A stretch of 64,000 nucleotides of DNA. It comes from Candidatus Nanoarchaeia archaeon (GTDB lineage Archaea; Nanobdellota; Nanobdellia; Woesearchaeales; JANQNE01). Position 1 is the first letter of the stretch. Each line of letters starts with the position of its first letter. This document shows positions 10,108 through 48,105 of this stretch, piece by piece. The notes beneath the pieces are model-generated. The model saw nothing but the letters and a program-made list of their open reading frames with translations. It did no database searches and was not told where the DNA came from. The position numbers and the translations under genes are program-made. The stretch is from contig JANQNE010000011.1 in NCBI GenBank assembly GCA_028279725.1, positions 25,872-89,871 of the forward strand, read 5' to 3'.

Positions 10108-10119
10108 ACAAAAACACCC

Positions 10120-11034: not shown

Positions 11035-11070
11035 GAAGAAGTTGTTATATTTAAATTATTAGATTCTCAA

Positions 11071-11163: not shown

Positions 11164-11171
11164 CTTTAGGA

Positions 11172-14311: not shown

Positions 14312-14342
14312 CTTTTTAAATAGAGAGTTCTTGTTTTGTCCT

Positions 14343-21701: not shown

Positions 21702-22183
21702 AAATGGGAAAGAAAAAACTAGAATCTATGGTTAAGAGTAGTGTTAAGTATCTGATAGAAGGGGCAGTCTTGGCTGCGAAAGAAAGATATGACGGTGCGT
21801 TAGAACATAGGGCAGCTGAATATGCTGTTGAGAGAGAAGGAAAGCTGACAAAGGACCAATATGAATTCTTATTTCATTGCATACATTGGTTTCTATATTC
21901 AAGCCCTGGAGAATATGGACAAAAGAAGAGGCTTGATCGTACAGATGCAAGGAGAAGTGGTGATAAGCAGTATTGGAAATTGTTGAATCCACGTGAGTTC
22001 TTCAATAATGGCGATGGTCCTAGGAAGGATTTTGATAGGACAATGAACAGATTAGCTGAATGTGCGTATAGGCAGGAGAAAGACTGGTTTGACGGAAGAT
22101 ATGCCAGTTATATGGATAAAGGCGGAGAAATCAACAGAACAGAAAGAGTTAAATTGTTAAAATCACTCGATATCAAAGAGTAG
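21689..22183 (+). CDS. Hypothetical protein
   Basis: 164-aa ORF overlapping the guaA stop by 13 nt and convergently overlapping purM by 21 nt; no recognised motifs. Confidence 0.35.
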   Translation: MLGVKMGKKKLESMVKSSVKYLIEGAVLAAKERYDGALEHRAAEYAVEREGKLTKDQYEFLFHCIHWFLYSSPGEYGQKKRLDRTDARRSGDKQYWKLLNPREFFNNGDGPRKDFDRTMNRLAECAYRQEKDWFDGRYASYMDKGGEINRTERVKLLKSLDIKE

Positions 22184-23281
22184 ATCTTCTTTATCTTTTC
22201 CTTTACTTTTTATTTTTATTTTGTTTTCTTCGATGACTTTGCCTGCAATCTGGGCTTTTATGTTGAACTTTGCTGCTTCCTGGATAACTTTTTCTGGCTC
22301 TGGTGTTATTATTGCTAAGCCTTGGCCCATGTTCCATGTCCTGTATGCTTCTTTGTCTGCTATGTTTCCTAGTTCCTGGCAATATTGCATAGCTTTGCAT
22401 GGTTCGAAAAGATTGTCTAGTTCAGCTCCATAACCTGATGGTTTTAGGACTCTGCCAAGTTTTCCTGGCAATCCGCCTCCTGTGATATGAGAGACACCAT
22501 GGATCTTACAGCATCCTTCTGTCTTGAAACCACCATGCATATGAATAACAGCTTTTGAATATATTGTTGAAGGTATGAGGACTAAATTTCCTAATTTTTC
22601 TCCTTCAAATTCAAAATTGTGCCATTCTGGACCATGTTTTTGTTCAAAAACCTTTCTTGTAAGAGATAATCCGTTTGATCTGAAGCCTTTTTCTTCAAGA
22701 ACAACAACAGAATCTCCTAGCTGAACTTCTTTTCCTGTGAAAAGCTTGTTTTTGTTTGCAAACCATGCTATGCTGGAGCACCAATTGTACTTGAACTTTC
22801 CATAACCACCAACACCATCTCCAAGTTCAGCTAATTCTCCGTTGATTACTGCAACATTTGCTGCATCAGCAGCTTTTACATAGCCTTCTGCAAGTTGTTT
22901 TAGCTGTTCTATGTGTGATTCGTTTTCTTTTCCTAAAGAATTAACGTCAAGAACACTTCCGATAAGGACTGGTTCTGCTCCTCTTACTATTGCATCATCA
23001 CAGACCATTGCAAAAAGATCAAAGGCTATTGTCTTATGGTTGTTCATCCTCTGTGCAATCTCTACTTTTGTTCCGACTCCGTCAAAACCTATGCACATAA
23101 GGCTTCCTTCAGGAAGATTTCCGATGTTAATGGCTCTGACTCCTGAGAAATCATCAAATGGAACGATGATCTCTCCGATATTGCCTTTTCTGTTATCAAA
23201 GGTAAGCTTTGCAGCTTTGTACAATATCTTTGATGCATCATCTCCAAGTTCGATGTTAACTCCTGAGTCTTTATAGTCCAT
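22163..23281 (-). CDS. purM: Phosphoribosylformylglycinamidine cyclo-ligase (AIR synthetase)
   Basis: IGFDGVGTKVEIAQ (DGVGTK) and the PurM-N/PurM-C layout; 372 aa. Confidence 0.85.
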   Translation of the reverse strand: MDYKDSGVNIELGDDASKILYKAAKLTFDNRKGNIGEIIVPFDDFSGVRAINIGNLPEGSLMCIGFDGVGTKVEIAQRMNNHKTIAFDLFAMVCDDAIVRGAEPVLIGSVLDVNSLGKENESHIEQLKQLAEGYVKAADAANVAVINGELAELGDGVGGYGKFKYNWCSSIAWFANKNKLFTGKEVQLGDSVVVLEEKGFRSNGLSLTRKVFEQKHGPEWHNFEFEGEKLGNLVLIPSTIYSKAVIHMHGGFKTEGCCKIHGVSHITGGGLPGKLGRVLKPSGYGAELDNLFEPCKAMQYCQELGNIADKEAYRTWNMGQGLAIITPEPEKVIQEAAKFNIKAQIAGKVIEENKIKIKSKGKDKEDLLFDIE

Positions 23282-23282
23282 A

Positions 23283-24782
23283 TTAACCTCTGTCAGCTTT
23301 CTCCAGCTTTTCTATCTTTTCTTTGTTTTTCTTTTTTATCGCTTTCTGGATCTTCTCATTTGAGAGTCCTAAGATCTGTGCTGCATGTCTTGCTGCATTA
23401 GCAGGTCTTAAGATCAATGAGTTAGAGCTTCCTGGTGGATTCTCTAAGCAAGAAAAGCAATCATCTGCATCAGGAGGACAGCTGATCACTGGGTGAACGC
23501 TGTGGAATGATACAACTCCTGAAAGAGCATCTGTTCCTCCTGCAACAGAGATAAATACAACTGGTTCTTCAGACTGGTTGTATTTGTTTATGATCTCTTC
23601 ACATCTTCTTGGTTGTTTGTGTGCTGAGCAGATTCTTATGACTGATGCCAGTCCGTATTTGTTCAACTCTTCCTGGATCTTTTTCAGATGAGGCATGTCA
23701 CTGTCTGATCCTGCTATGATAACTACTAAGCCACCTTTGATGTATCCTTCTTTTCTTAGCTTTTGGATCATATCTGTGCTTACATCTGACTGAGGGAAAT
23801 TGAACTTATTTCCTGTCAGGCTTTCATATAAACTGATATATCTGTAAGCAACTTCTATTACATCTTTGTCTTCAAGTTCTGGCGGCTTTTCTGTTGATCC
23901 GTAAGCACCATATCCTTTTTCAACAAGAACATCTCTAACGAACTGTTTTGACAGCTCTTTTATCTTTAGCTGTGGTTTTTTCTTAAGAAGTTCTGTTACA
24001 TCTTTGTATCTTCCTGTATCCATCTCTTTCTTTATTCCTGTGTATTTGTTGTATTCTTCTATTGTACAGTATCTTGATGAATCTGGTGTGTTTGCTTCGT
24101 CAATCAGGTTGATCTTTCCTTTTTCGTCGATACCAAACTCATACTTTGTGTCAATGAAGATAAATCCTTTCTGTTCTGCCAGTTTTGATGCACGCTTAAA
24201 TAGTCTTATTGAGATATCTCTGAGCTGTGTTGCCAGTTTTTTTCCAAGCTTATCTGCCATGTATTCAAAGCTTACATTAACATCATGATCTCCATCTTCT
24301 GCTTTTGTAGCTGGAGTAAATAATGGTTCTCTAAGCTTTTGGTATCTTAGCAATGAATCTGAAAGCTTTATTCCGCAGAACTCTCTTTTTCCATCTTCGT
24401 AGTCTGCAGCCATGCTTCCCCAAACATATCCTCTTACAACGAATTCGAATGCAATCTTATTCATCTTTTTCTGGACAATAACATTTCCATGAGGGCTTCT
24501 TATGACAGCGTTTGGAACAATATCTGTTGTGTTGTCAAATGCCCATTGTGCGAAGAGGTTTAATGTTAATCCTTTGAAAGGGATCTGCCTGCTAAGTACA
24601 TGGTCAAAGCAAGATATCCTATCTGATGCCACCATCACTATAGGTTTTCCAACTTTTGGTGATGTAAAATGTACTTCTCTTACTTTTCCTGATTTATGTG
24701 TTCCAAGTTCTGGGATGTATCCTGAGAACAGGGTATTGTCTAAGTTTTCTTTGATTATTTTTTTGTATTTTTGTTCTTCCAT
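23283..24782 (-). CDS. Bifunctional SAICAR synthetase (PurC, long/ADE1-type) + PurE class II (AIR carboxylase) fusion, PAICS-like
   Basis: N-terminal half has SGKVREVH, TKAEDGDHDVNVS and FIDTKYEFG (PurC). C-terminal half has VVIIAGSDSDMPH and CSAHKQP (PurE; SAHK indicates class II). Confidence 0.8.
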   Translation of the reverse strand: MEEQKYKKIIKENLDNTLFSGYIPELGTHKSGKVREVHFTSPKVGKPIVMVASDRISCFDHVLSRQIPFKGLTLNLFAQWAFDNTTDIVPNAVIRSPHGNVIVQKKMNKIAFEFVVRGYVWGSMAADYEDGKREFCGIKLSDSLLRYQKLREPLFTPATKAEDGDHDVNVSFEYMADKLGKKLATQLRDISIRLFKRASKLAEQKGFIFIDTKYEFGIDEKGKINLIDEANTPDSSRYCTIEEYNKYTGIKKEMDTGRYKDVTELLKKKPQLKIKELSKQFVRDVLVEKGYGAYGSTEKPPELEDKDVIEVAYRYISLYESLTGNKFNFPQSDVSTDMIQKLRKEGYIKGGLVVIIAGSDSDMPHLKKIQEELNKYGLASVIRICSAHKQPRRCEEIINKYNQSEEPVVFISVAGGTDALSGVVSFHSVHPVISCPPDADDCFSCLENPPGSSNSLILRPANAARHAAQILGLSNEKIQKAIKKKNKEKIEKLEKADRG

Positions 24783-24806
24783 TTTTTCCTCCCCTATCCC
24801 TCTTTT

Positions 24807-25421
24807 TTATTTTTTGACTATAACTTTTCTTCCTTCAACCTTTATCTTTCCTTCTCCAAAAAGCTGTATAGCTTTAGGGTAAAGCTCTTTTTCTAATGTC
24901 TGGACCTTTTCTTTCAATGAATCTACTGTCTCGTCGTTCTCTATGTCTACTGTTCCCTGCATTATTATAGGTCCTGTGTCCATTCCTTCGTCAACAAAGT
25001 GGATTGTGCATCCGCTGACCTTACATCCATAGTTAAGGATGTCTTCATGTACTGACCTGTCCATTCCTGGGAATGAAGGCAGTAGTGAAGGATGAATGTT
25101 CATTATCCTGTCTTTATATTTGTTTGCAAACCATGGGCTAAAAAGACGCATATAGCCTACAAGGACTAAAAGTTCTACTTCTTCCTGGTCTAAGATCTCT
25201 GCAACTCTTTTGTCGTAGCTTTCTCTTGTGTCTTCATCTTTTTTGTACAATTCTATTCTTGTCTTGAATCCCTGGTTTTGTGCTCTTTCGATAGCATAGC
25301 ATTCTTTGTTTGCTAGGACAATCTTTAATTCTGCATCAAGCTCTTTGTTCTTTATAGCATCCATTATAGCCTGAAGATCTGTTCCGTTTGTTGATGCCAT
25401 TACAGCTATTTTTATCGTCAT
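24807..25421 (-). CDS. purN: Phosphoribosylglycinamide formyltransferase
   Basis: [13 protein letters not shown] and [13 protein letters not shown] (NxHPSLLPxF) motifs; 204 aa. Confidence 0.85.
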
Positions 25422-26287
25422 TTTAGATTATTTTGCATCTTGTATGCAGTTAATGTGTTTTCTAGTAATGATGCTATTGTCATAGGGCCAACTCCACCTG
25501 GAACAGGTGTTATGTGTGAGCATTTGCCTTTTACGTTTTCAAAGTCAACATCGCCTTCAAGATGATATCCTTTTTCTGAGTCATCATCAACTCTGTTAAC
25601 TCCTACATCAATTACTACTGCTCCTTCTTTTACCATATCTGCTGTTACTAGTTTTGGTCTTCCTACTGCTGCAACTAATATATCTGCTGTCTTGCAGATC
25701 TCTGCCATATTTTGTGTTCTTGAATGGCAGATGGTTACTGTTGCGTTTTTTTGGAGTAGTAATGTCGATACTGGTTTTCCTACGATATTGCTTCTTCCTA
25801 TCACAACAGCATGTTTTCCGCTTATGTCTGTTCCAGTTGATTCTATAAGTGTTATTATCCCTTTTGGTGTGCATGAGACAAGGCTATTGTTTCCTGTGAA
25901 TAGATTTCCCATATTTACAGGATGAAATCCATCAACATCTTTCTCTGGGATTATTGTGTTTATGACTTTAGTGTCTGAGATCTGTTTTGGAACAGGCATC
26001 TGGACTAAAATTCCATTGACTGTTTCGTCGTTGTTAAGCTTTTCTATGAGTTTTAGCAGCTCTTCTTCTGGAATGTCTTTATCTAATTCATATTTGAATG
26101 ACTGAATGCCTACTTCTCTGCATTTCACTTCTTTCATGTTGACATATACTTTTGAAGCTGGATTTTCCCCTACTAAAACAACTGCTAATCCTGGCTTTTT
26201 TTCCAGTTGTGAAACTTCTTCTTTGATCTTTTCTCTTATCTCAGCTGAGATCTTGTTTCCGTCTATCAATTCCATTTTATCTATCAC
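25418..26287 (-). CDS. folD: Bifunctional methylene-THF dehydrogenase / methenyl-THF cyclohydrolase
   Basis: [29 protein letters not shown] and [10 protein letters not shown] blocks typical of FolD; overlaps purN by 4 nt. Confidence 0.85.
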
Positions 26288-27445
26288 CTAAAAATGTGCA
26301 AAGCATCTTTCTGTAGTATAGACCATTGCCATATCATGATCATTTGCTGCTTCAACAACCTCTAGGTCTTTTACAGAACCTCCTGGCTGTATTATTGCAG
26401 TTATACCTTGATTTGCTATAAGGTCAACTGAATCTCTGAAAGGAAAGAATCCATCTGATGAGATGACTGCTCCTTTTAGGGGATTTTCTGACAGTTTTTC
26501 TTTTGATGCTATGACATTTAATGAATCATATTCAATATTTTCCCTATCCATTGCTTTTTGGTATGCTTTTAGGATAGCCTGCTCAACAGCTCCAACTCTT
26601 TCTTGCTGTCCTGAGCCTATTGATAGGGAAACACCATTCTTAACAATAACAACACCATTACTTCTTACACCTAGGTTGATGTACCATGATGTTAGCAGGT
26701 CTTGGAGTTCCTGTATTGAAGGCTCTCTTTTTACTGAAACTTCTTTTTCATCTGTGTTTATTGTCGGATGTGTTATAAGATCTGATGGATCTTTTATCTT
26801 GCATAAGTAAGGTTTTTGGATGATTAATCTTCCTGCACCCATTATTTTGACGTCGAAGAGTCCTGTTGTGTCATCTCCAGCAAATTTTGGAACTTTGTCT
26901 AGGTTTTCGAATGTGAGCAGTCTCATGTTTTTCTTTTCGCTCAGGATATCTTCTGCTTCTTTCTGGAATCCAGGAGCTGCAACAGCTTCAACATAGCTTG
27001 TCATTATCTCTTCTGCTGTTTCTTTGTCAACTTCTCTGTTGAAAACTACTACTGAGCCGAATGCACTTCTTGCATCAGCATCTCTTGCATTTTTGTAGAT
27101 GTCTTTCAATGAGTTGTCCTGATATTGAGTTGCAAACCCCGAAGGTATTATGTGTTTCATAACGCAAACTGAAGGATGATTGAAGAACTTCAGTATTTCC
27201 ATAGCTCTTATTACATCCATTACATTTGTTGCTGATAATCCACCTTTTCCTGATTTTAGAAGCTGAATATTTGTAAGGTCAGCTATTGTTGATCCTTTGA
27301 ACTTGTATTCTGCTCCTGGCTGATTTGGATTTTCTCCATATCTTAGATCCATCTCTTTGACTAATTCTAACGGCAGTTCATCCGGATAGTCTCCAGCATT
27401 TACTGTCTTGTACATATTTTTTAGGTCGCTTAAGTTTTCTCCCAT
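26288..27445 (-). CDS. purH: AICAR transformylase domain of PurH, encoded as a separate gene
   Basis: LRYGENPNQ and downstream AICARFT blocks; begins 1 nt after the stop of the IMPCH gene, with its own RBS (GAGGGA). Confidence 0.8.
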   Translation of the reverse strand: MGENLSDLKNMYKTVNAGDYPDELPLELVKEMDLRYGENPNQPGAEYKFKGSTIADLTNIQLLKSGKGGLSATNVMDVIRAMEILKFFNHPSVCVMKHIIPSGFATQYQDNSLKDIYKNARDADARSAFGSVVVFNREVDKETAEEIMTSYVEAVAAPGFQKEAEDILSEKKNMRLLTFENLDKVPKFAGDDTTGLFDVKIMGAGRLIIQKPYLCKIKDPSDLITHPTINTDEKEVSVKREPSIQELQDLLTSWYINLGVRSNGVVIVKNGVSLSIGSGQQERVGAVEQAILKAYQKAMDRENIEYDSLNVIASKEKLSENPLKGAVISSDGFFPFRDSVDLIANQGITAIIQPGGSVKDLEVVEAANDHDMAMVYTTERCFAHF

Positions 27446-27446
27446 T

Positions 27447-28169
27447 CTAATCCCTCTTTATTTCATAGCATTTCTCAAGATCTGCTATCTCTGTTTTTTG
27501 TATCAGCTTATTGACTGATGCCATATAATCTGTTATCATGCTTGATGCTTTTTTTGCCAAGTTAAGGCGAGTTGCAAGTGAGATCGCTCCGTTGTTTGTG
27601 TCTAGTTCTTCAATTAGTGTTTTGTATTCTGACGGATCTGTTATCAATGCAGTGCTTACTAATGCTTTTCTTGCATTATGACTCATGCTTGGCCCTCCTA
27701 CGTCTATATTTTGCCTTAGGATCTCAAAAGTTGAGTCAGGCTTTGCCATCATCTCATCCAATGGATAAAAGTTGACTATTAATGCATTGATGTAGTTGAT
27801 GTTATGTTCTTTCATGAATTCATCGTCTGATTCTGTATGATTGTGTGCTAAAAGTCCTGCATGTATAACTGGATGTAGTGATTTAACTAATCCTGTCTTC
27901 ATCTCAGGGTATTTTGTAACTTCTGAGACTTCTACAACATTAAGCCCTGCTTCTTTTACTATCTTGTATGTTCCTCCTGTTGATATGAACTGGACATCTG
28001 GGTTTTTTTCTGCTATAAAACCTAAAAGTCCGTTTTCTGGAATTCCTTCTATTATTGGTCCATCTTTTCTTTTGTTGGAAACTAATCCTTCTTTGTTTGT
28101 ACAGCTGACCAATACATGCTTTAGCTGTATAAGGTCATCAACTTTTTTTACAAATTCAATTTCAGCCAT
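27447..28169 (-). CDS. purH: IMP cyclohydrolase (MGS-like) domain of PurH, encoded as a separate gene
   Basis: ISTGGT, VSEVTKYPEMKTGLVKSLHPVIHAG and VNFYPL match the PurH N-domain; 240 aa. Confidence 0.8.
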   Translation of the reverse strand: MAEIEFVKKVDDLIQLKHVLVSCTNKEGLVSNKRKDGPIIEGIPENGLLGFIAEKNPDVQFISTGGTYKIVKEAGLNVVEVSEVTKYPEMKTGLVKSLHPVIHAGLLAHNHTESDDEFMKEHNINYINALIVNFYPLDEMMAKPDSTFEILRQNIDVGGPSMSHNARKALVSTALITDPSEYKTLIEELDTNNGAISLATRLNLAKKASSMITDYMASVNKLIQKTEIADLEKCYEIKRD

Positions 28170-28738
28170 TATTTACACCTTATCACTCTTTTTTCGGTAA
28201 TTATCATATCCATCGGGATGTCATAATCTTCTGTTGGTATATTTTTTGTTATCTGTTCTTCAAATGCAAGCCCTATTTTTAGGGAGTTTCTGTCTTTCAG
28301 GAATCTGTCGTAAAAACCTTTTCCGAATCCTATCCTTGCTCCGCTTTGGTCAAAAGCGATGCCTGGGACGAGGACGATGTCCAGGTTTTCTTTGTATTCC
28401 TCTTTTTTGATTGGTTCGAGTACTCCGAAGTTCCCTTCTTTTAGGTCATTGAAGTCAGATAATTTTGATATCTTTATGTTGTTTTCTTCGACAAATGGGA
28501 TGATTACTGTCTTTTGCTGCAGTTGTTCTTTGATTAATTCTATTGTGTTTACCTCACTTTTTAGTGAAAGGTAAGACATCACTATGTTTGCTTTTTTGAA
28601 CTCATCCAGATCTTTTAGATGTTGGATGATTGTCTTGCTTTTTTCTGAGATCTGTTCTTCCGGTATGTTATCTCTTATGGACCTTATGGTGTTTCTGATC
28701 TCTTGTTTGTTTATTCTGTTCATAGTGCGATTCTTCAC
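28169..28738 (-). CDS. 5-formyltetrahydrofolate cyclo-ligase (MTHFS)
   Basis: GARIGFGKGFYDRF (GxGxGyYDR) family signature; 189 aa; overlaps neighbours on both sides. Confidence 0.75.
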   Translation of the reverse strand: MKNRTMNRINKQEIRNTIRSIRDNIPEEQISEKSKTIIQHLKDLDEFKKANIVMSYLSLKSEVNTIELIKEQLQQKTVIIPFVEENNIKISKLSDFNDLKEGNFGVLEPIKKEEYKENLDIVLVPGIAFDQSGARIGFGKGFYDRFLKDRNSLKIGLAFEEQITKNIPTEDYDIPMDMIITEKRVIRCK

Positions 28739-31404
28739 TTTTGCCTATCAAGCTCTTTTTTTGCAATATCTTTTCTAAAAAACATGCCGTCGAAGTTTAT
28801 GTCATTTATTTTTGTGTATGCTGTATCGACGGCATCTTTAAGGGTTGATCCTAATGTGATTACATTTAATACTCTTCCTCCATTTGTGAGGATCTTTCCG
28901 TTATCTTTCTTTGTTCCAGCGTGAATCACCTGTGCTCCACTTATGTTATCTAAACCTTTTATCTCTTTTCCCTTTTCATATGAACCAGGATAACCTCCTG
29001 ATGCTAGTACTATGCTTACGCAGTGTTTTTCAGACCAGTCTAGTTTCATAGCTCCTAGTTTCTTGTCTATTACTGCGTTCATTACGTCAAGTATATCATT
29101 GTTTAATCTTGGAAGGATAACCTGTGTTTCCGGATCTCCAAATCTGCAGTTGAATTCTAAGATCTTTAGGCCGTCTTTTGTTTTCATAAGTCCGACGTAG
29201 AGGACTCCTTTGTATTCTATGCCTTCTGCTTTTGTTCCAGCTATGAATGGCTTAATTATCTTTTCTTCCATCTCTTTTTCAAGTCCGTCTAATATTGGTG
29301 CTGGTGAGTAAGCTCCCATCCCTCCTGTATTAGGGCCTTTGTCTCCTTCATAGATTGGTTTGTGATCCTGTGAATATACCATTGGCTTGAATGTTTCTGA
29401 GTCTACGAAGACTAAGTAGGACCCTTCTTCACCTACAAGACATTCTTCTACAACTATTGATGAAGATGCATCTCCGAATTTGTTTGCTTTTAGGCATTCT
29501 TCTGCAAACTTTACTGCTTCTTCTACTGTGTTTGCGACAAGAACTCCTTTTCCAGCAGCTAGTCCGTCTGCTTTTACGACAATTGGTGCTCCCTGCTTTT
29601 CGATGTATGCTTTTGCTTTTTCAAAATCAGTGAATTCATCAAATTCAACTGTTGGAAGATTATATTTTTTCATGAATCTTCTTGCAAATGCTTTTGATCC
29701 TTCAAACTGTGATGCTTTTTTGTTAGGGCCGAAGACTCTTATCCCTGCTTTTTCAAGTTCGTCAGCTGCTCCGTTAACTAGCGGAGCTTCTGGACCTATG
29801 ATTGCAAGATCTATCTTCTTTTCTTTTGCAAACTTGACTAAAGCTTCATTATCATTTTGGTCGATATCATGACAGCAAGCTACCTGGCCAATACCTGGAT
29901 TTCCCGGGACTGCGTATAGTTTGTTTAATCTGTCAGATTCTGTGACTTTTAATGCAATAGCATGCTCTCTTCCGCCTGAACCAACTATCATTACGTTAAG
30001 TTTGGTGTCTAATGTTGTCTGCTCTTCTGTTCTCTGGCAACCAAGGCATTGCTGCTGTGATTCTGATACTGGTTCTGGGTATTCTCCTGTTAAACATGCC
30101 ATACATACATCCCTCCTTGTAGCATTCTTGATATTATCAACTGTTGCATATACTAAATTATCTGCTTCAAGATATTCTCTTATCTGTTCTATTGATTTAT
30201 CTGAAGCTATAAGCTCTTTTTTTGTCGCCATGTCTATCCCATAGAAGCATGGGAATTTTATAGGAGGACAAGCAGAAACAAATGTAACTTTTCTAACTCC
30301 TCCATCTTTTAATGTTCTTACTATCCTTTTTGATGTTGTTCCCCTTACAATGCTGTCATCAACTACAGCAACACTCTTGTTTTCAAGTATACTTATTACA
30401 GGCCTTAGTTTTCTTCTTACTGAGTCATGCCTTGTCTTTTGTGATGACATTATGAATGTTCTTTGTATATATTTATCTTTGATCAGACCTTCCCTATATT
30501 TTACAGCAAGATCTTCACTTAATTTTATAGCAGCTGTCCTTCCTGAATCTGGAACTGGGACTACAACATCGATGTCTTTTTGGTCCATCTGCTCGCTCAT
30601 CAGTTTTCCAAGAGCTAATCTTGTCTTGTATACTGATCTGTTCTCTATCATGCTGTTCGGGCTTGCAAAATATATCCATTCAAACATACAATGAGCTTTT
30701 TTCTCCTGTTTTAGGATCTTGCTTTCTATAACCAAGTCTTTTGAGATAAAAACAGCTTCTCCTGGCTCTATATCTCTGACATAATCATGATCAATAACCT
30801 GAAATGCTACAGTTTCTGAAGCAAATATGTATGAATCTCCTCTCTTTCCGAGAACTAAAGGCCTTATGCCTCTTGGATCTCTTATCGCGAATATACCTTT
30901 GTCTGCTATCATTCCAACAATTGAGTAAGCTCCTCTTACCTTATCCATGAAGTGCTTTGCAGCTGCAAAGAAATCTCCATGCTGTTCGTAATGCTCTGCG
31001 AATATTCTTAGAAGAACTTCACCGTCAACAGAGGTTTCAAGATGTTTTCCTTTTTTTTGGAATTCTTCTTTTAGGTCGAAGTAGTTTATTGTGTTTCCGT
31101 TCTGAGCCATAGCAACTTTTGGGTTGATCTTTGTTGTAAGAGGTTGTGCGTCGCACAACATTCCTTTTCCCTGTGTTGCATATCTTGTGTGGCCGATGCC
31201 CATCTTCCCTTGTAATAGGTTTGCGTCTCTTGCCTTGAATACTCTGTGAACAGCATCCATCTCTTTTTTTGTGAAGAATTCGTCTTTTACGTTTGTTACT
31301 ATGCCGCATGCATCCTGGCCTCTATGCTGCAATGACATCAAGCTAGTTACTGCATCCTCAAAAACTTCATCATCTTTTGAAACAATACCAATAATTCCGC
31401 ACAT
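28735..31404 (-). CDS. Fusion of amidophosphoribosyltransferase (PurF, Fe-S type) and phosphoribosylamine--glycine ligase (PurD)
   Basis: N-terminus MCGIIGIV (Ntn Cys1), PRTase VVDDSIVRGTTS, Fe-S ligand regions CMFEWIYFASP and CMACLTGEYP. After a short linker comes LNVMIVGSGGREHAIALKV (PurD start) and the ATP-grasp C-terminal half. 889 aa. Confidence 0.85.
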   Translation of the reverse strand: MCGIIGIVSKDDEVFEDAVTSLMSLQHRGQDACGIVTNVKDEFFTKKEMDAVHRVFKARDANLLQGKMGIGHTRYATQGKGMLCDAQPLTTKINPKVAMAQNGNTINYFDLKEEFQKKGKHLETSVDGEVLLRIFAEHYEQHGDFFAAAKHFMDKVRGAYSIVGMIADKGIFAIRDPRGIRPLVLGKRGDSYIFASETVAFQVIDHDYVRDIEPGEAVFISKDLVIESKILKQEKKAHCMFEWIYFASPNSMIENRSVYKTRLALGKLMSEQMDQKDIDVVVPVPDSGRTAAIKLSEDLAVKYREGLIKDKYIQRTFIMSSQKTRHDSVRRKLRPVISILENKSVAVVDDSIVRGTTSKRIVRTLKDGGVRKVTFVSACPPIKFPCFYGIDMATKKELIASDKSIEQIREYLEADNLVYATVDNIKNATRRDVCMACLTGEYPEPVSESQQQCLGCQRTEEQTTLDTKLNVMIVGSGGREHAIALKVTESDRLNKLYAVPGNPGIGQVACCHDIDQNDNEALVKFAKEKKIDLAIIGPEAPLVNGAADELEKAGIRVFGPNKKASQFEGSKAFARRFMKKYNLPTVEFDEFTDFEKAKAYIEKQGAPIVVKADGLAAGKGVLVANTVEEAVKFAEECLKANKFGDASSSIVVEECLVGEEGSYLVFVDSETFKPMVYSQDHKPIYEGDKGPNTGGMGAYSPAPILDGLEKEMEEKIIKPFIAGTKAEGIEYKGVLYVGLMKTKDGLKILEFNCRFGDPETQVILPRLNNDILDVMNAVIDKKLGAMKLDWSEKHCVSIVLASGGYPGSYEKGKEIKGLDNISGAQVIHAGTKKDNGKILTNGGRVLNVITLGSTLKDAVDTAYTKINDINFDGMFFRKDIAKKELDRQK

Positions 31405-31406
31405 TT

Positions 31407-32231
31407 TTATCTATCCTTAAAATAGTCAACAGCATTCTGGAAAATCCTGAAGTTTGAGCTAATTAAATCAGGGATCTCTTTGTTTTCTCTTTTAGCGATC
31501 TCTTTTTTCAGATGGAATTCCGGCTCGCTGATTGAGTATATTGCTCTTTCTGGATGAGGCATCATTCCCATTAGCCTTCCAGTCTTGTCGCAGATAGCTG
31601 CTATATCATTTAAAGCTCCATTAGGGTTGATAGGGTAAACATTTTCTGCATCATCTCCTGCTTCATTGCAGTACGTGAAAACTATCTGGTTGTTCTTTTT
31701 TAATTCTTCAAGTGTGTTTTTATCGCATGTGAATCTTCCTTCTCCATGAGCTATAGGGAGATGTGTCTGTTCTATTCCTTTTGTGAATATACAATTAGAA
31801 TTGTTGTTTTTTATGTTTACCCATAAGCATTCATATCTGTTGCTTGTGTTTGATTCTAATGAGCTGATTCTTTTTCCGTAGTCTCCATCTGTAGCGAATA
31901 ATCCTAAATGGGTCATGACCTGGAATCCGTTGCAGACTCCGAGTATCAATTTTCCTGAGTTTATGAACTCTAAAAGATCTTCCCAAAGGTTGTTTTTTAT
32001 CTTGTTTGCAAAAGCATTTCCTGAACCTGTGTCATCTCCATACGAGAATCCTCCTGGAAACATAATTATATTGTAGTCAGACATCTTTTTCTTTTTTGAG
32101 ATAAGGTCGTTTATGTGGACAATTTCGCATTCAGCTCCTGCTTTTTCAAAAGCATGAGCACTTTCTTTCTCGCAGTTGATCCCATATCCTGACATAATCA
32201 ATACTTTTGGTATCATATTAATAGTCCTCAA
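31407..32231 (-). CDS. purQ: FGAM synthase glutaminase subunit
   Basis: Class I GATase catalytic GVCNGFQ and HGEGRF; 274 aa; overlaps the purL stop. Confidence 0.85.
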   Translation of the reverse strand: MRTINMIPKVLIMSGYGINCEKESAHAFEKAGAECEIVHINDLISKKKKMSDYNIIMFPGGFSYGDDTGSGNAFANKIKNNLWEDLLEFINSGKLILGVCNGFQVMTHLGLFATDGDYGKRISSLESNTSNRYECLWVNIKNNNSNCIFTKGIEQTHLPIAHGEGRFTCDKNTLEELKKNNQIVFTYCNEAGDDAENVYPINPNGALNDIAAICDKTGRLMGMMPHPERAIYSISEPEFHLKKEIAKRENKEIPDLISSNFRIFQNAVDYFKDR

Positions 32232-35214
32232 ACCTTTTTTTGTATATTTTTTCTAATTTTTCAATGTCTGTCTTGATTACTTGTTCTTCTTTGTTGTTTA
32301 TTATGAACTCATTGTCTTCTTTTACTGTTCCTATCTTTGCTATGTCGAAGTCGCTCATTGCTTTTACAAATTCATCCTGGTCTTTAGGGTTGATCGTTAC
32401 GATGAATCTGGACTGTGATTCTGAATAGAATATCTTTTCTATTGGCAGGTTATCGTTTGGTGCTTTGCTTAAGTCTGTTTCCGCTCCAAGCTGTCCTGCG
32501 ATTGCCATCTTTGCTAATGTGATCAGTAGTCCGCCTTGATTGACTGGAGCACATGCACTGAACATTCCTTTTTTGTTTAACTGGAACATTGTTTCGTAAA
32601 GTTTTCTTGCTTTTTGTGCATCTACTTTTGGTGACTTTGCTCCGAACTTATCGAATGCTCTATAGAACTCGCTTCCACCACATTCGTCTTTCGTCATTCC
32701 TATGGTGTATATCAGATCTCCCGGAAGCTTGAAGTCCATCGTTATTGTATCTTTTGCATTGTCGATTATGCTTATGCTTGAGATCATCAATGTTGGAAGT
32801 ACTGAAATCTTTATTGAGTTATCTTTTTCGTCAAATCCTTTGAAATCGTTGAACATGCTGTCTTTTCCTGAGATAAATGGTGTTTTGTAGATGGTTGCAT
32901 AATCATAGCATGCTTGTGCTGCGTCTTTTAGCTGGCCCATACGTTCTGGCTCGTTTGAACTGCACCAGCAGAAGTTGTCCATGAGTGCAAGATGGTCTAT
33001 GTTTCCGCCGACAGCAACACAGTTTCTTATTGAAGTGTCTATAGCACATGCTGCCATATCATAGCAGTTTATCTCGCTTAGTCTTGGATAAAGGCATTGT
33101 GACATAACAGCTGCTTTATTGCTGCTGAACAAAGGCTTTACAACTGAAGCTGCTCCGTTGACTCTGCCTTTTCCCTGTAATGGTTTTATGACTGAGTTAT
33201 TCTGAACTTCATGATCATACTGTTTTGATATAAATTCAAAGCTGCAGTTGTTGTGATTTCCCAGGATCTTTTCGAACAGTGCTTTTTGGTTGTCTATTGT
33301 TATTTTTGGCTCTTCTGTCCTGTAAGGATAAGGTTTTGTGATAAGTTTTCTTTTTGGAAGTCCGTCATGTAAGAATTCCATGTCTAAGTTGAATATTTCT
33401 TTTCCGTTGAAATTCACTATAGCTTTTTTTGTGTCGTTGAAATTTCCAATTACTGTTGATTCAACTCCTCTGCTTTCCATAAGGTCCATGAATTCTTTTA
33501 GCTTGTTGTCTGGAACTGATAATGTCATACGTTCCTGTGATTCTGAAATCCATGTTTCCCAAGGCGGAAGTCCTGGATATTTTAGAGGAACTTTTTCTAA
33601 GTCTACTATGAAACCACCACATTCTCTTGCCATCTCTGCAACTGAACAGGATAATCCTCCTGCTCCATTGTCTGTTATGCTATTGTAAAGTTCTTTATCT
33701 CTTGCTTCTTTTACAATTGCATCCGAGAGTTTCTTTTGAGTGATCGGATCTCCTATCTGAACAGCTGTTGCTGGTGAGCCTTCATCCATCTCTTCTGATG
33801 AGAATGTTGCTCCGTGAATACCATCTTTTCCAACTCTTCCGCCGATCATGACAATGTTGTCTCCTGGCTGAGCCTGTTTGTCCTGGCTTGGATTTCCGTT
33901 AGGAAGTTTTCTTGGTAAAAGTCCTACAGTTCCTACGAATATGAGAGGTTTTCCCTTGTAGCAATCGTCGAAGTATACAAATCCTGTTGGTGTTGGAATA
34001 CCTGAGCAGTTTCCTCCTACATTTACTCCATGTATTACTCCATCCATGATCTTTCTTGGTGTTAAAGCTGGGTTTGTCTTGTTCTTTCCTCTGTAAATGA
34101 ATGTCTTGTCTTCTGGTCTTCCTAAGCAGAAGCCGTATTTGTTAACTATTGGAAGTGCGCCCATACCGAAGCCGATAGTGTCTCTGTTAACTCCTACAAT
34201 TCCAGTTATAGCTCCTCCAAATGGATCTAATGCTGAAGGACTATTATGTGTTTCAGCTTTGTCTGTGATCATCCAGTCGTCATTGAATATTATTCCTCCT
34301 GAATTGTCTTTGAATACTGATAAGCAGAAATCTTTATCTCCTAAGTCTTCTCTTACTTTTATTGTCGCTGCTTTGATGAACTTTTTGTATATTCCTTCTT
34401 TTATGTCATCTATCTCTCCTGCAAATAAAGTGTGTTTGCAGTGTTCTGACCATGTTTGTGCGATTGATTCCAGCTCAATATCAGTTGCTTTTCTTCCTTC
34501 TTTTTTGTAATAAGCCTGTATTGCGTGTAAGTAGTCTAAGTCTAAAGCTAAAGGGCCTCTTCTTGTGTTTGTTACAGGATCAGGAATTCCTTTTTTTCCA
34601 AGTTCTGTAAGAATTTCATCACTGACATTCAGATCAATTGCAATTACGTTTTGTTCTTCTTTTATGTTTACTTTTGGAACAATATAATCCATGCCGTTGT
34701 CTTCAGTGTATTGTTCTGCTGATTTGATGTGGAAACGTTCTATTAAAGTGTTGATTAGTTCTTTTGCAATTATTTCTATGTCTTCTTTCTTTAGGTTGTC
34801 TGATTTTATTAAGATCAGTTTAGAAGTGAATACTTTGTTTCTTCCAATGTTGATCTTGAATAGGTCGTTTATGATTTCTGTAGTTGTGTTTGCTACATTG
34901 TCTGTAACTCCTGGCAAGAATCCCAGTTCTAATGCCCAGCTAAACTCTTTTTTTGATGGTGAGTTGATCCTTGGAGTTTCTACGATAGGATTGTGTAATG
35001 CGTTAGCTATTGCTGTTATTTGTTCTGCTGAGAAATCATACTGGATAGTGTATACTTTGCTTACTTCAATAGAGGTTTCGAAGCCCAGCGAGAACAGCTT
35101 TTTCTCTAATATTTTGGCTTCAGAGCCCTTCTCCTTGGAATCTATAGAAATCCTAAATATCTGTCCATTTTCTTGCATGATCAACCCCCTATAGTTAGCT
35201 GAAAAATGACTCAT
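32218..35214 (-). CDS. purL: FGAM synthase II (PurL) with ~215-aa N-terminal PurS-like extension
   Basis: SEHCKH motif at ~aa 250 marks the canonical smPurL start, followed by PurM-like repeats. The upstream segment LGFLPGVTDNVANTTTEIINDL resembles the PurS core; no separate purS in the operon. 998 aa. Confidence 0.8.
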   Translation of the reverse strand: MSHFSANYRGLIMQENGQIFRISIDSKEKGSEAKILEKKLFSLGFETSIEVSKVYTIQYDFSAEQITAIANALHNPIVETPRINSPSKKEFSWALELGFLPGVTDNVANTTTEIINDLFKINIGRNKVFTSKLILIKSDNLKKEDIEIIAKELINTLIERFHIKSAEQYTEDNGMDYIVPKVNIKEEQNVIAIDLNVSDEILTELGKKGIPDPVTNTRRGPLALDLDYLHAIQAYYKKEGRKATDIELESIAQTWSEHCKHTLFAGEIDDIKEGIYKKFIKAATIKVREDLGDKDFCLSVFKDNSGGIIFNDDWMITDKAETHNSPSALDPFGGAITGIVGVNRDTIGFGMGALPIVNKYGFCLGRPEDKTFIYRGKNKTNPALTPRKIMDGVIHGVNVGGNCSGIPTPTGFVYFDDCYKGKPLIFVGTVGLLPRKLPNGNPSQDKQAQPGDNIVMIGGRVGKDGIHGATFSSEEMDEGSPATAVQIGDPITQKKLSDAIVKEARDKELYNSITDNGAGGLSCSVAEMARECGGFIVDLEKVPLKYPGLPPWETWISESQERMTLSVPDNKLKEFMDLMESRGVESTVIGNFNDTKKAIVNFNGKEIFNLDMEFLHDGLPKRKLITKPYPYRTEEPKITIDNQKALFEKILGNHNNCSFEFISKQYDHEVQNNSVIKPLQGKGRVNGAASVVKPLFSSNKAAVMSQCLYPRLSEINCYDMAACAIDTSIRNCVAVGGNIDHLALMDNFCWCSSNEPERMGQLKDAAQACYDYATIYKTPFISGKDSMFNDFKGFDEKDNSIKISVLPTLMISSISIIDNAKDTITMDFKLPGDLIYTIGMTKDECGGSEFYRAFDKFGAKSPKVDAQKARKLYETMFQLNKKGMFSACAPVNQGGLLITLAKMAIAGQLGAETDLSKAPNDNLPIEKIFYSESQSRFIVTINPKDQDEFVKAMSDFDIAKIGTVKEDNEFIINNKEEQVIKTDIEKLEKIYKKRFEDY

Positions 35215-35269
35215 ATATAAATATTATGGCTACCAGCCAGTACTAAAGATATACTCAAGAATATAGTTT

Positions 35270-35704
35270 TTACCCTCTAAGTGAAGGATGTAATGGGTAA
35301 GAAGGTGTTATGTATGTGTCTCCTCTTGATTCTACTTTTATCAATGTGTTATCAGCTACCCTAAAATCTAACGGGTCTTTGATTGCATTATCCCTGGCTT
35401 CGAATTTTCCAAGATAACATTCTTGAACTGCTTGTTTTAAGTGCGGTTCACAAGCAAAGATTTCAGCATAAGGTGTTGCTTCCATGATTGCCTTTGCAAC
35501 ATCAAGACTTGAGCTTCCTTCTTTTACAATGTTTGCCAGATCAACCATATCATAGAGCTTAATTGTTCCTGCTGGTTCTTTTTCACACTTCTTACATTCT
35601 CCATAAGGAAGATGCATAGTCTCGGTCAACCTATTTCTATCCATCGCTTTTCTAAGTGGAATGGATTTTTCCAAACCTTTTATGAATTCTCCTAAATCTG
35701 ACAT
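35270..35704 (-). CDS. Hypothetical protein within the purine operon
   Basis: 144-aa ORF between purB and purL; CKKCEKE pair; no family assigned. Confidence 0.4.
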   Translation of the reverse strand: MSDLGEFIKGLEKSIPLRKAMDRNRLTETMHLPYGECKKCEKEPAGTIKLYDMVDLANIVKEGSSSLDVAKAIMEATPYAEIFACEPHLKQAVQECYLGKFEARDNAIKDPLDFRVADNTLIKVESRGDTYITPSYPLHPSLRG

Positions 35705-35787
35705 AGAACAAAAGGATTACTAAGTTGTATATAAATATTATTGTTTTTGAGTATTCTAGAATGGTAACGTTACGTTAATCGTAAGAA

Positions 35788-37227
35788 CTAAACATTAATT
35801 GATGTGTTTGATTTTCCGACCAATTCTTTGTATTTTTCCAGAACTGGTTTGACTTCTTTCTGGATGAATTCTTCTGTCTGTTCTTTTGCTGCTCCTGTGA
35901 ACCTTACTGGGTTGTCTAATAGTGAGTTTAGGTAGTTTTCATCTACTGGTATTGACTGGTCTTCTGCTAATCTTTTGAATAAGTCATTCGGTTTTCCTTC
36001 TAGTTTTACTGATTTTGCTGCATCTACTGAATGTTTCTTTATTATTTCGTGCATCTCTTGTCTGTCATGTCCTTGTTTTGCCAATTCCATCAGTATAACT
36101 TCTGTTGACATGAACGGCAGTTCTGCATCAAGATGTTTTTTGATCTGAGCTGGATAGACAACCATGCCGTCTGTTATGTTTTGATATAGTTTTAAGATTG
36201 CGTTTGCTAGAAGGAAAGACTGAGGTATACTGATCCTTCTTATGGATGAATCATCTAGTGTTCTTTCAAACCACTGGTTAGCGTGAATATGTGAGAAATC
36301 TATTTGAAGATTGATGAGTTTTCTTGCCAATGCAGTCATACGTTCAGAACGCATTGGGTTCCTTTTGTATGCCATAGCTGAAGATCCTGTCTGTGATTTT
36401 GCAAATGGCTCTTCCATTATCTTAAGATTTGACATAAGTCTCATGTCAACTGCGAATTTATGCGCTGATTCTGCGATTCCTGACAGAATTTTTGCAACTA
36501 TAGTGTCGAATTTTCTTGTGTAAGTCTGTCCTGTAGTTGGATATGATTCTTCAAAACCTAATTTTTTGCTTACTAAGCTGTCTAATTGCTTAACTTTTTC
36601 ATAATTGTCGTTGAAAAGTTCTGTGTATGATGCCTGAGTTCCTACTGTTCCTTTTGCTCCTCTTGCTTTTAATTCTATCTGTTCTAATTGTTTTAGGTCT
36701 AGTAAAAGATCTTGAATGTAAAGTGTGATTCTTTTTCCTATGGTTGTCGGCTGTGCTGGCTGGTAATGTGTGTATCCTAGTGTTGCTAATGATTTGTTTT
36801 CTTCAGCAAATTTGGATAAGTTGTTTATTGTGTTTATTAATCCTGCTTTTATGATCTTCAGTGCTTCTCTTATTTGGATTAGATCTGTGTTGCAGCAGAC
36901 GAACTGAGAAGTTGCTCCTAAATGGATTATTCCTTTTGCTTTTGGGCAGTGTGTTCCGTATTCAAACACATGAGCCATGACGTCGTGTCTGATTTCTTTT
37001 TCTTTTTCTTTTGCGATGTCATAGTTGATTGTGTTCTGAGCAGCTTTTAGCTCTTCGATCATCTCTGGAGTGATCTGGGAGAGTCCTAGTTCCATCTGAG
37101 ATTCAGCTAAAGCTATCCAGCACTTTCTCCATGTTGAGAACTTGAAATTATCTGAGAATATCTGCTGCATCTCTTTGTCAGTATATCTTCCTACTAACGG
37201 ATCCTGGTAAACTTCGTGATTGCTCAT
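35788..37227 (-). CDS. purB: Adenylosuccinate lyase
   Basis: Fumarate-lyase signature GSSAMAYKRNPMRSE and the PurB-specific C-terminal domain; 479 aa. Confidence 0.85.
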   Translation of the reverse strand: MSNHEVYQDPLVGRYTDKEMQQIFSDNFKFSTWRKCWIALAESQMELGLSQITPEMIEELKAAQNTINYDIAKEKEKEIRHDVMAHVFEYGTHCPKAKGIIHLGATSQFVCCNTDLIQIREALKIIKAGLINTINNLSKFAEENKSLATLGYTHYQPAQPTTIGKRITLYIQDLLLDLKQLEQIELKARGAKGTVGTQASYTELFNDNYEKVKQLDSLVSKKLGFEESYPTTGQTYTRKFDTIVAKILSGIAESAHKFAVDMRLMSNLKIMEEPFAKSQTGSSAMAYKRNPMRSERMTALARKLINLQIDFSHIHANQWFERTLDDSSIRRISIPQSFLLANAILKLYQNITDGMVVYPAQIKKHLDAELPFMSTEVILMELAKQGHDRQEMHEIIKKHSVDAAKSVKLEGKPNDLFKRLAEDQSIPVDENYLNSLLDNPVRFTGAAKEQTEEFIQKEVKPVLEKYKELVGKSNTSINV

Positions 37228-37287
37228 TTTACCCCCTATGTCTGAAGAGTAGATGGTTGATATTTAAATGTTTTGAGAAAAATAAGG

Positions 37288-47523: not shown

Positions 47524-47676
47524 TTTAAAGCACCCCTCTGTTTTTGATAATTTATATGGAGGTTTTGCTACATTTATAAGTCTTTCGGTTTTATATAAAT
47601 TTTATATATTATAAGAATTAATTATAAATAGCACGGAATAACTCCAACGTTTATAAAACCTTTAAGGAGGGATAAA

Positions 47677-47826: not shown

Positions 47827-47942
47827 GTGTTTTTTTATATAATTCTTATACGTTTTATAAAATTTAATGGGTAATTATATATATTTGCTTCTATTACTAC
47901 CTCTTATCCAAGGTTAAAATACTATAAATGGGGTGGGGTTGA

Positions 47943-48092: not shown

Positions 48093-48105
48093 GGGGGTGA
48101 GTGAG

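Follow-up and report, generated by a model that had tools for sequence, protein, structure and literature searches.

A cluster of genes for de novo purine biosynthesis lies in a 64,000-nucleotide stretch of contig JANQNE010000011.1 (assembly GCA_028279725.1, Candidatus Nanoarchaeia archaeon), the whole of which is referred to here as the window, and it is the make-up and origin of this cluster that concern us. Genes were called from a list of open reading frames (ORFs), a Pfam domain scan and NCBIfam models, and the features of the locus are collected in Table 1. Twelve pathway genes lie within 15 kb, an arrangement which is well beyond chance and for which a statistical test is unneeded, and guaB, purA and guaA converge on purM from the opposite strand. 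The 3′ end of purM and the convergent ORF164 overlap by 21 nt; ORF164 has no Pfam match, and the relative L086 (relatives are denoted by locus labels throughout) has an unannotated ORF of 141 amino acids (aa) at the equivalent position.

Table 1. Genes and promoter-like elements of the purine locus; position 1 is the first nucleotide of the window.
Feature	Position	Strand	Description
TATA-like element CATTTAAATA	37261-37270	-	precedes the purB ATG by about 35 nt; read from the sequence
purB	35788-37227	-	adenylosuccinate lyase, 'long ADSL' type; step 8 and adenosine monophosphate (AMP) branch
TATA-like element ATAATATTTATATA	35728-35741	-	upstream of ORF144
ORF144	35270-35704	-	144 aa, between purB and purL, without family match
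TATA-like element ATAATATTTATATA, identical copy	35214-35227	-	upstream of purL; putative purL to purM promoter
purL	32218-35214	-	formylglycinamidine ribonucleotide (FGAM) synthetase with N-terminal PurS-like extension of about 220 aa ('mdPurL'); step 4 with PurQ
purQ	31407-32231	-	glutaminase subunit of FGAM synthetase
purF-purD fusion	28735-31404	-	889 aa; amidophosphoribosyltransferase and glycinamide ribonucleotide (GAR) synthetase; steps 1 and 2
MTHFS	28169-28738	-	5-formyl-tetrahydrofolate (5-formyl-THF) cyclo-ligase; returns 5-formyl-THF to the one-carbon pool
purJ	27447-28169	-	stand-alone inosine monophosphate (IMP) cyclohydrolase, the MGS-like N-terminal half of PurH; step 10
purV	26288-27445	-	stand-alone aminoimidazolecarboxamide ribonucleotide (AICAR) formyltransferase, the C-terminal half of PurH; step 9
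folD	25418-26287	-	methylene-THF dehydrogenase/methenyl-THF cyclohydrolase; 10-formyl-THF for PurN and PurV
purN	24807-25421	-	folate-dependent GAR formyltransferase; step 3
purC-purE fusion	23283-24782	-	succinylaminoimidazolecarboxamide ribonucleotide (SAICAR) synthetase of yeast/mycobacterial type and class II aminoimidazole ribonucleotide (AIR) carboxylase; steps 7 and 6
purM	22163-23281	-	AIR synthetase; step 5; last operon gene
guaB	16540-18120	+	IMP dehydrogenase with CBS domain; guanosine monophosphate (GMP) branch
purA	18125-19855	+	adenylosuccinate synthetase, 576 aa
guaA	19866-21701	+	single-chain glutamine-hydrolysing GMP synthetase, 611 aa
ORF164	21689-22183	+	164 aa, function unassigned, at the convergence point

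All ten steps from phosphoribosyl pyrophosphate (PRPP) to IMP could be assigned by Pfam and NCBIfam, with the catalytic motifs intact. PurB combines the Lyase_1 and ADSL_C domains, scores 368 bits against the NCBIfam purB cutoff of 326 and bears the SSAMAYKRNP signature. PurQ (GATase_5, 277 bits) retains the GVCNGFQ and HPE catalytic motifs, while PurL contains the FGAR-AT_linker, AIRS and AIRS_C domains, and its residues 1 to ~220, which precede the FGAR-AT linker, give a weak match to PurS (E=3.8e-4, 21.0 bits as against a cutoff of 22.2). No separate PurS-like ORF occurs in the cluster, and with its N-terminal extension, adjacent purQ and lack of a purS alongside, the enzyme has the hallmarks of mdPurL, of which it is the presumptive structural equivalent, PurS function being probably supplied by the extension. 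The PurF-PurD chain (GATase_6/7, Pribosyltran and GARS_N/A/C) exceeds both NCBIfam cutoffs, with 440 bits for purF and 541 bits for purD, and its N-terminal Cys (MCG) and phosphoribosyltransferase motif are intact in the PurF part. PurN (Formyl_trans_N; NCBIfam 195 bits, cutoff 150) carries the HPSLLP and Asp motifs and PurM (AIRS and AIRS_C) the DGVGTK motif, and the folate enzymes FolD (THF_DHG_CYH, 240 bits, and THF_DHG_CYH_C, 144 bits) and MTHFS (5-FTHF_cyc-lig, 159 bits) are equally recognizable. The function of PurH is split between two genes, separated by a stop codon and a 1-nt gap, of which purJ specifies MGS and the start of AICARFT_IMPCHas (positions 27-200 of the 510 of the NCBIfam PurH model) and purV the AICARFT_IMPCHas domain (189 bits; positions 194-510), and the two together span both PurH domains, IMPCH (MGS-like) and AICARFT. 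Among the plus-strand products, GuaB (IMPDH, 317 bits) has the GMGGGSICIT catalytic loop, GuaA (GATase and GMP_synt_C) scores 503 bits in NCBIfam against a cutoff of 400, and PurA matches Adenylsucc_synt over the whole model (233 bits) with its GDEGKG P-loop intact. Set beside enzymes of ~430 aa, the 576-aa PurA has insertions that add up to ~150 residues, and it scores 195 bits in NCBIfam, below the equivalog cutoff of 402; its counterpart has 598 aa in L086 and a normal 455 aa in L087.

Enzymatic activity and THF use are predicted from domain content and motifs, and on this footing the pathway would operate as follows. A translationally coupled operon of ten genes, purL-purQ-purF·D-MTHFS-purJ-purV-folD-purN-purC·E-purM, would be driven from the TATA-like element at 35214-35227 and, together with a separately promoted purB upstream, would cover the route from PRPP to IMP in all ten of its chemical steps. 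The extension of PurL would take the role of PurS, PurF and PurD would act in one chain, and class II PurE, fused to PurC, would carboxylate AIR directly, so that neither PurK nor ATP would be needed at that step. PurJ would serve as IMP cyclohydrolase and PurV as AICAR formyltransferase, and both formyl transfers, by PurN and PurV, would draw on 10-formyl-THF supplied or recycled by FolD and MTHFS. From IMP, AMP would be reached via PurA and PurB, and GMP via GuaB and GuaA. PurK, PurT, PurP, PurO and a separate PurS were not found in the 64-kb window.

Across the ten genes purL to purM, neighbours overlap by up to 14 nt or lie up to 24 nt apart (junctions of −14 to +24 nt), while spacers of 83 nt and 55 nt separate purB from ORF144 and ORF144 from purL, respectively, each with a TATA-like element. 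Upstream of purB, CATTTAAATA is followed by the Shine-Dalgarno-like sequence GGGGGT, and guaB is preceded by a TATA-like ATATTTAAATA and a Shine-Dalgarno-like GAGGGGGT. The A/T-rich 14-mer ATAATATTTATATA occurs in two exact copies in the window, and when up to 2 mismatches are allowed there are 11 matches where 2.1 are expected. Its copy before purL abuts the ATG of the longest purL ORF; the real start is probably Met13 (35178), after a GGGGGT, since relatives align only from residues 18-20 onward. The spacers with TATA-like elements before purB, ORF144 and purL make three transcription units likelier than one super-operon, and these units would probably be purB, ORF144 and the ten-gene purL to purM core, with the TATA-like elements as putative promoters; purB appears to have a promoter of its own and not to be translationally coupled to the remaining genes. 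ORF144 has no Pfam match even at E≤1, its single-sequence AlphaFold model has a pLDDT of 37, and relatives carry other, unrelated genes between purB and purL, ORF144 being conserved in none of them; it is lineage-specific filler or an ORFan outside the conserved cluster. An Rfam scan of the whole window for riboswitches (ZTP, purine and THF) returned none, a single tRNA being the sole match.

Archaeal markers flank the cluster on both sides, namely a class I LysRS, an archaeal/eukaryotic-type ProRS, a diphthamide-synthase domain and Alba, and a tRNA that probably contains an intron points the same way. For PurV, PurC·E and PurB the best database matches carry the label Candidatus Woesearchaeota or Nanoarchaeota and are 71-86% identical. 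Gene content and these matches together place the host among archaea of DPANN/Woesearchaeota type. An earlier note on this DNA, made from the letters and a list of ORFs, had already taken the genome to be archaeal and DPANN-like, and its account of the locus was largely borne out: the purine genes that it named lie where and in the order it gave, as the ORF list, Pfam and NCBIfam agree; guaB, purA and guaA are convergent on the plus strand; and the pathway is complete and, by its PurN, PurH-type domains, FolD and MTHFS, folate-dependent. Its 'one super-operon' holds for the coupled ten genes from purL to purM, but purB and ORF144, the latter of which it had not listed, are likely separate units.

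GC content is flat across the window at 0.35-0.39, with 0.36-0.39 for the purine genes, and the GC of third codon positions is 0.27-0.41 for the purine genes as against 0.23-0.45 elsewhere in the window. At third codon positions the plus strand is very strongly skewed to G>C and T>A whatever the orientation of the gene, a skew in which the purine genes follow their neighbours, and cumulative GC skew climbs monotonically over the window, which probably lies within one replichore with the plus strand leading. In relative synonymous codon usage the purine genes correlate at r=0.864, compared to 0.972 ± 0.011 for controls, and at r=0.905 when matched for strand. We rejected this deviation as a sign of horizontal transfer because the purine genes obey the same plus-strand skew as their neighbours, and the deviation is thus largely a strand effect of a minus-strand operon in a window with biased silent sites. 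A small discrepancy is left over: even after strand matching, r=0.905 falls slightly short, and the operon somewhat exceeds other minus-strand genes in its T>A skew. Expression level, or spurious small ORFs among the controls, may account for it. The composition of the cluster, then, is not the deviating one of a recent bacterial island, and the comparison of GC and codon usage that the earlier note had put forward as a check for foreign origin gave a GC content and silent-site strand skews that match those of the neighbouring genes. The ORFs scanned, which comprise most of those of 80 aa or longer in the window, include no integrase or transposase, and there is no flanking tRNA, the only one lying 22 kb away.

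The cluster is likewise not absent from close relatives, as the operon is present in L081, L086 and L089. L081, a Woesearchaeota metagenome-assembled genome (MAG; GCA_019322535.1), has the identical purL to purM order at 55-79% identity, with a serine hydroxymethyltransferase (SHMT) gene directly after purM, while L086 has the identical order at 64-91% identity and keeps the convergent guaA-purA-guaB too. In L089 purB is followed by three unrelated genes and then purL-purQ-purF·D-MTHFS. All three encode a PurF-PurD fusion of 889-891 aa and have MTHFS at the equivalent position, a gene which also adjoins purD in L005 and L006. The PurJ/PurV split is conserved in relatives, the pair being found in several DPANN archaea (the window, L081, L084, L086, L087 and L088); in L088 purJ-purV is divergent from purB, after which come PurT, a HAD gene and purL-purQ-purF·D. 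In more distant Woesearchaeota, Pacearchaeota and Nanoarchaeia a stand-alone purV, often accompanied by purJ, lies in clearly archaeal surroundings, among genes for PolD, PCNA, family-B polymerase and diphthamide synthase. PurV, PurC·E and PurB each have more than 100 DPANN homologs, and the best 120 PurV matches are all stand-alone proteins of 361-432 aa with at least 54% identity, labelled Woese-, Pace- or Nanoarchaeota. From these comparisons the purL to purM core is seen to be inherited within a Woesearchaeota subclade, with a gene order that is fluid in more distant DPANN. In L085 (Nanoarchaeia, 2789-4896) a PurV with 54% identity to that of the window is translationally coupled to the archaeal PurO instead of PurJ, and by these gene assignments both last-step solutions, PurJ and PurO, exist in this DPANN group.

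Affinities of the individual enzymes were taken from neighbour-joining (NJ) trees built on simple distances with 100-200 bootstraps, in which labels derive from GTDB record titles or NCBI names. For PurL the branching order is an archaeal single amplified genome (SAG), then a bacterium of the candidate phyla radiation (CPR), then Woesearchaeota, with 100% support at each node; this group is sister to Bathyarchaeia, and the bacterial clade stands apart at 100%. For PurM the order is Elusimicrobiota, then CPR, then Woesearchaeota, a group which has the archaeal PurM clade as its sister at 100%, mainstream bacterial PurM lying elsewhere. PurF groups with Woesearchaeota (100%), then with Bathyarchaeia (74%) and with Micrarchaeota, Iainarchaeota and an archaeal SAG (72%), bacteria following only thereafter, and PurN falls within a DPANN/archaeal clade supported at 99% in a labelled sample. 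The clade to which PurV belongs consists of stand-alone proteins with Woese-, Pace- or Nanoarchaeota labels; the stand-alone clades that follow are mostly DPANN (Nanoarchaeota, Pacearchaeota and Aenigmarchaeota) with few bacteria (Ignavibacteriales and a Deltaproteobacterium), and all of them lie outside the 97%-supported clade of canonical full-length PurH. PurB is of the 'long ADSL' subfamily, with 50.5% identity to human ADSL and 24-30% to ordinary PurB. A closest relationship of PurB to eukaryotes, as a score of 482 bits to human ADSL might suggest, was rejected, since sequences from Desulfobulbales reach 63% identity and the human enzyme 50%. For none of PurL, PurM, PurF, PurN, PurV and PurB did the NJ trees place the window's sequence inside a bacterial donor clade.

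The purC-purE gene joins the Pfam domains SAICAR_synt and AIRC, and its PurE half bears the class II signature, with SAHK at residue 386 and CPP (SCPP) at 435. This half scores 89 bits against PurE of Treponema denticola, 81 against human PAICS and at most 58 against class I enzymes, and it falls within a class II PurE clade with 100% support. With metazoan PAICS (PDB 2h31 and 4ja0) the protein shares the order of an N-terminal PurC and a C-terminal PurE as well as the SAHK and CPP signature. It differs in that the PurC half has no match to the SAICAR-synthetase domain of PAICS, the PurE half alone matching, and instead matches yeast ADE1 and mycobacterial PurC. In the PurE tree, metazoan PAICS, PurE of T. 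denticola and a Bathyarchaeial class II PurE all lie outside a clade of DPANN and protist fusions. By its predicted chemistry the protein is PAICS-like in its working, yet by descent it is no member of the PAICS family.

The protist fusions in that clade are full-length homologs of 49-53% identity from Vitrella brassicaformis, the dinoflagellate Kryptoperidinium triquetrum and transcripts of MMETSP and EukProt, and many transcript-sized metagenomic contigs also encode homologs of PurC-PurE(II). DPANN and protist fusions are collinear, of ~500 aa, and have the motifs ICSAHKQP and SCPP in common. For the PurC half they form one clade relative to stand-alone homologs with 100% bootstrap support, within which they are reciprocally monophyletic (96% and 94%), and for the PurE half they form a joint clade at 54% within the 100% class II clade. 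A weak nesting of protist PurE within DPANN (53%) was not reproduced by the longer PurC domain, which gives the reciprocal monophyly. Unlike the window gene, the protist fusions are intron-containing nuclear genes, that of Vitrella (L090, CDMY01000259.1) having at least 4 introns and lying in 59%-GC DNA between a large eukaryotic PurL gene and a clathrin-adaptor gene. In this Vitrella locus (L090, 1-8034) the PurC-PurE(II) gene is head-to-head with the large eukaryotic-type PurL gene, and the two are thus neighbouring purine genes in a eukaryote. The DPANN/CPR clade also includes proteins (P0370, P0378, P0380 and P0392) with the architectures PurC-PurN-PurE (711 aa) and PurC-PurE-PurQ (754-828 aa), and fusion of purine genes appears, from such sequences, to have occurred repeatedly in DPANN/CPR lineages.

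DPANN-type purine genes were also found in bacteria. L092 (GCA_023380815.1) is a genuine Patescibacteria contig by its genes for RF-1, EF-Ts, RRF, MreB/C, LytR and ribosomal proteins S2 and L31, and at 6080-14309 it carries the cluster mdPurL-PurQ-PurC·E-PurB-PurM. Identity to the window is 56% for PurL, 54% for PurQ and 65% each for PurC·E and PurM, compared to just 26-34% for other bacteria, and its PurL and PurM branch beside Woesearchaeota sequences, inside or next to archaeal groups. An exception among the purine genes of L092 is PurB, which with its ASL_C domain belongs to the E. coli type. The Elusimicrobiota SAG contig L024, bacterial in its gene context, encodes a PurM of 55% identity to that of the window; an apparent PurF-PurD fusion on L024 proved to be adjacent purD and purF genes. 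The simplest reading of these sequences is that a multi-gene module moved from archaea to CPR, and we infer that the transfers of PurL and PurM, and probably that of PurC·E, ran from DPANN-like archaea into bacteria (CPR and Elusimicrobiota). It is tempting, though with slightly more doubt than confidence, to go further and suppose that the DPANN and protist PurC-PurE fusions go back to one fusion event, with a single crossing of the boundary between archaea and eukaryotes, and that the module mdPurL-PurQ-PurC·E-PurM was exported to CPR. In the literature searched there was no relevant report of a PurC-PurE fusion in DPANN or protists, and neither the protist link of the fusion nor the export of the module to CPR was described. 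Were both to hold, DPANN archaea would be donors of core anabolic genes and not recipients alone.

Since close relatives share the operon, it is long-resident and not a recent wholesale import from bacteria, and we regard it as highly probable that the cluster is a resident purine regulon, and that its host, a DPANN archaeon of Woesearchaeota type, either retained or long since built up its autonomy in purine synthesis. Its ancestry would be deep and mixed, with archaeal-type PurL, PurQ, PurM, PurF and PurN, a DPANN-specific PurV, a PurB sister to Desulfobulbales and a PurC·PurE shared with protists. The earlier note's description of the pathway as largely bacterial in type was overstated, as a PurS-extended PurL with separate PurQ is known from methanogens and class II PurE is fused to PurC as in protists. 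Nor was its conclusion of wholesale acquisition from bacteria supported, given the operon order shared with relatives, the native composition and the trees of PurL, PurM, PurF and PurN; an operon shared by relatives and an archaeal placement of the enzymes are what the note itself had named as refuting it. As to the phylogenies it had proposed, PurN proved archaeal (99%) and PurV lay outside the PurH clade, which speaks against bacterial import.

Several observations weigh against a resident regulon. The nearest non-DPANN relatives of PurB, Desulfobulbaceae and Desulfolithobacter, form its sister clade at the 63% identity given above, so that by sequence PurB is linked to bacteria, and a bacterial affinity is possible for PurD, FolD, MTHFS and the single-chain GuaA. 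GuaA has its best PDB match in human GMPS (372 bits, as against 320-359 bits for bacterial enzymes), but it is single-chain as in bacteria and eukaryotes and about equally close to both. A survey of complete genomes met with the combination of purJ and purV in Bacteria only (Cruz et al. 2019, PMC6486802), and Huang et al. (2021, PMC8421398) inferred that Woesearchaeota subgroup J had gained nucleotide genes, 'possibly from bacteria'. PurD, FolD and PurQ as well as the deep PurV nodes are placed without resolution; all trees are NJ trees, with taxon sampling biased to query similarity and many labels that come from MAG binning. PRPP synthetase, SHMT and folate-biosynthesis genes were not found in the 64-kb window. 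An ancient bacterial contribution to the folate-dependent half of the pathway is possible.

These points bear most on the explanation that PurN, PurJ/PurV, FolD, MTHFS, PurD, PurB and GuaA were gained piecemeal from bacteria in ancient times, joined to archaeal PurL, PurQ, PurM and PurF, and later compacted and vertically inherited, which we consider unlikely but which is by some way the strongest competitor. To the PurB sister clade and the gene gains of Huang et al. can be added that PurD has Actinomycetota, Bacilli and Alistipes as its neighbours after DPANN (44-47%), that FolD is 52-54% identical to that of Alistipes, that some stand-alone PurV clades are bacterial, and that other DPANN (L005 and L006) have a fused PurH inside the large PurH clade. 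On the other hand, PurN sits in its 99% DPANN/archaeal clade, the PurV clades nearest to that of the window are overwhelmingly DPANN, and for PurB and PurV the DPANN sequences are sister to bacterial clades and not nested within bacteria. Far less probable is that the whole 15-kb module, folate-supply genes included, was imported from a bacterium in one piece. The choice of PurN, PurH-type enzymes and single-chain GuaA over PurT, PurP, PurO and two-subunit GuaA would fit such an event, as would the earlier record of purJ with purV in bacteria only, and the CPR purL-purQ-purC·E-purM cluster, at 54-65% identity, demonstrates that inter-domain transfer of modules occurs. Related Woesearchaeota, however, share the operon at 55-91% identity; GC and silent-site strand skews are native; signs of mobility were lacking among the ORFs scanned; PurL, PurM, PurF and PurN side with archaea and PurV stands outside canonical PurH; the CPR and Elusimicrobiota copies lie beside or inside archaeal groups, which points to the opposite direction of transfer; and the promoter-like elements resemble archaeal TATA boxes, without a bacterial riboswitch in the Rfam scan. 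That a bacterial fragment was chimerically joined to archaeal sequence in assembly or binning is hardly credible, for although MAG data are prone to chimeras and some homologs have bacterial bin labels (Aminicenantales and Bacteroidota), archaeal markers stand on both sides of the cluster in one contiguous window, neither composition nor strand skew shows a break at the junctions, and independent assemblies from other samples show the same arrangement beside archaeal genes.

Other parts of the window merit mention. The tRNA (59835-59936; 102 nt, Rfam 51.6 bits over the full 71-position model), at which ARAGORN finds no tRNA, nor elsewhere in the window, probably holds an intron of ~30 nt, as is typical of archaea. 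PyrB/PyrI and a TRAM protein are also encoded. Between 2422 and 12215 lie genes for a DAP epimerase (2422-3240), a D-Ala-D-Ala ligase (11172-12215) and a CxxCxxCC protein, together with three consecutive FemAB/LPG_synthase_C-like or GNAT (Acetyltransf_6) genes (8301-11034), and this cluster may represent genes for building a murein- or pseudomurein-like peptide in a DPANN genome. Directly upstream of guaB (14331-16424) a 697-aa protein fuses a glutamine amidotransferase/asparagine-synthase module to a Dph6-like diphthamide synthase domain, and its product may be a glutamine-dependent diphthamide synthetase; the Pacearchaeota locus L084 has a separate Dph6-like gene with a glutamine amidotransferase (GATase) gene after it. 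A 1100-aa protein (41910-45212), the sole recognisable feature of which is a weak response-regulator receiver domain (residues 198-276), is followed by a PHP-domain protein. At 47677-48759, in an apparently ORF-poor stretch of 1.4 kb, three small acidic ORFs (49, 49 and 57 aa) stand in tandem, paralogs that have the motif YSEDGRE.LVD.DEMT.EEA.FMQGY in common; several TATA-like elements occur at 47592-47849.

The usual picture of DPANN archaea is one of auxotrophic symbionts that draw their nucleotides from a host, and the window provides a contiguous example of a Woesearchaeota lineage that encodes a full purine pathway and one-carbon supply in a compact, conserved operon, which has a bearing on which DPANN may be free-living. 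It also counsels caution, as the presence of PurN and PurH instead of PurT, PurP and PurO should not be read as evidence of recent transfer: the versions found here have a long history in DPANN, and some of them are of archaeal type. Both the protist-shared fusion and the DPANN-type purine genes in CPR and Elusimicrobiota are possible cases of inter-domain flow out of DPANN, and the PurC·E fusion offers a predicted prokaryotic model of a PurK-independent, PAICS-like enzyme.

The pur operon of the Bacillus subtilis type is purEKBCSQLFMNHD. The cluster described here resembles it in being co-directional and overlapping, in having separate PurL and PurQ, and in the folate-dependent chemistry of PurN and PurH. 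It differs in gene order, in the lack of purK and of a separate purS, in its PurC·PurE(II) and PurF·PurD fusions, split PurH and inclusion of folD and MTHFS in the operon, and in having TATA-like archaeal promoter elements and, in the Rfam scan, no purine or ZTP riboswitch. The mdPurL of some methanogens, in which ~200 extra N-terminal residues replace PurS alongside a separate PurQ (Brown et al. 2011, PMC3261824), is of the same architecture in a different lineage, the extension in the window having its sub-threshold PurS match, and the same study provides an archaeal precedent for class II PurE without PurK. As in the split systems of Cruz et al. (2019), adjacent purJ and purV replace purH, the difference being that they do so here in several DPANN archaea. 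Most DPANN are without a purine pathway, as the earlier note had stated and as PMC8091004 and the portion available to us of the review by Dombrowski et al. (2019, PMC6349945) confirm, the latter listing Woesearchaeota and Nanoarchaeota among those possibly making purines. That certain Woesearchaeota have near-complete purine pathways is known from the literature, subgroups D and J being the reported cases (Huang et al. 2021), and our findings agree with the available text of these two papers in that a minority of Woesearchaeota can make purines de novo and in that transfer is raised there too. Their accounts, as far as that text extends, consist of presence/absence and reconciliation counts, with no mention of the operon, the fusions, the class of PurE or the affinities of single enzymes. 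Set against that text, the window adds that several of the enzymes are archaeal-type and that transfers apparently ran outward to bacteria.

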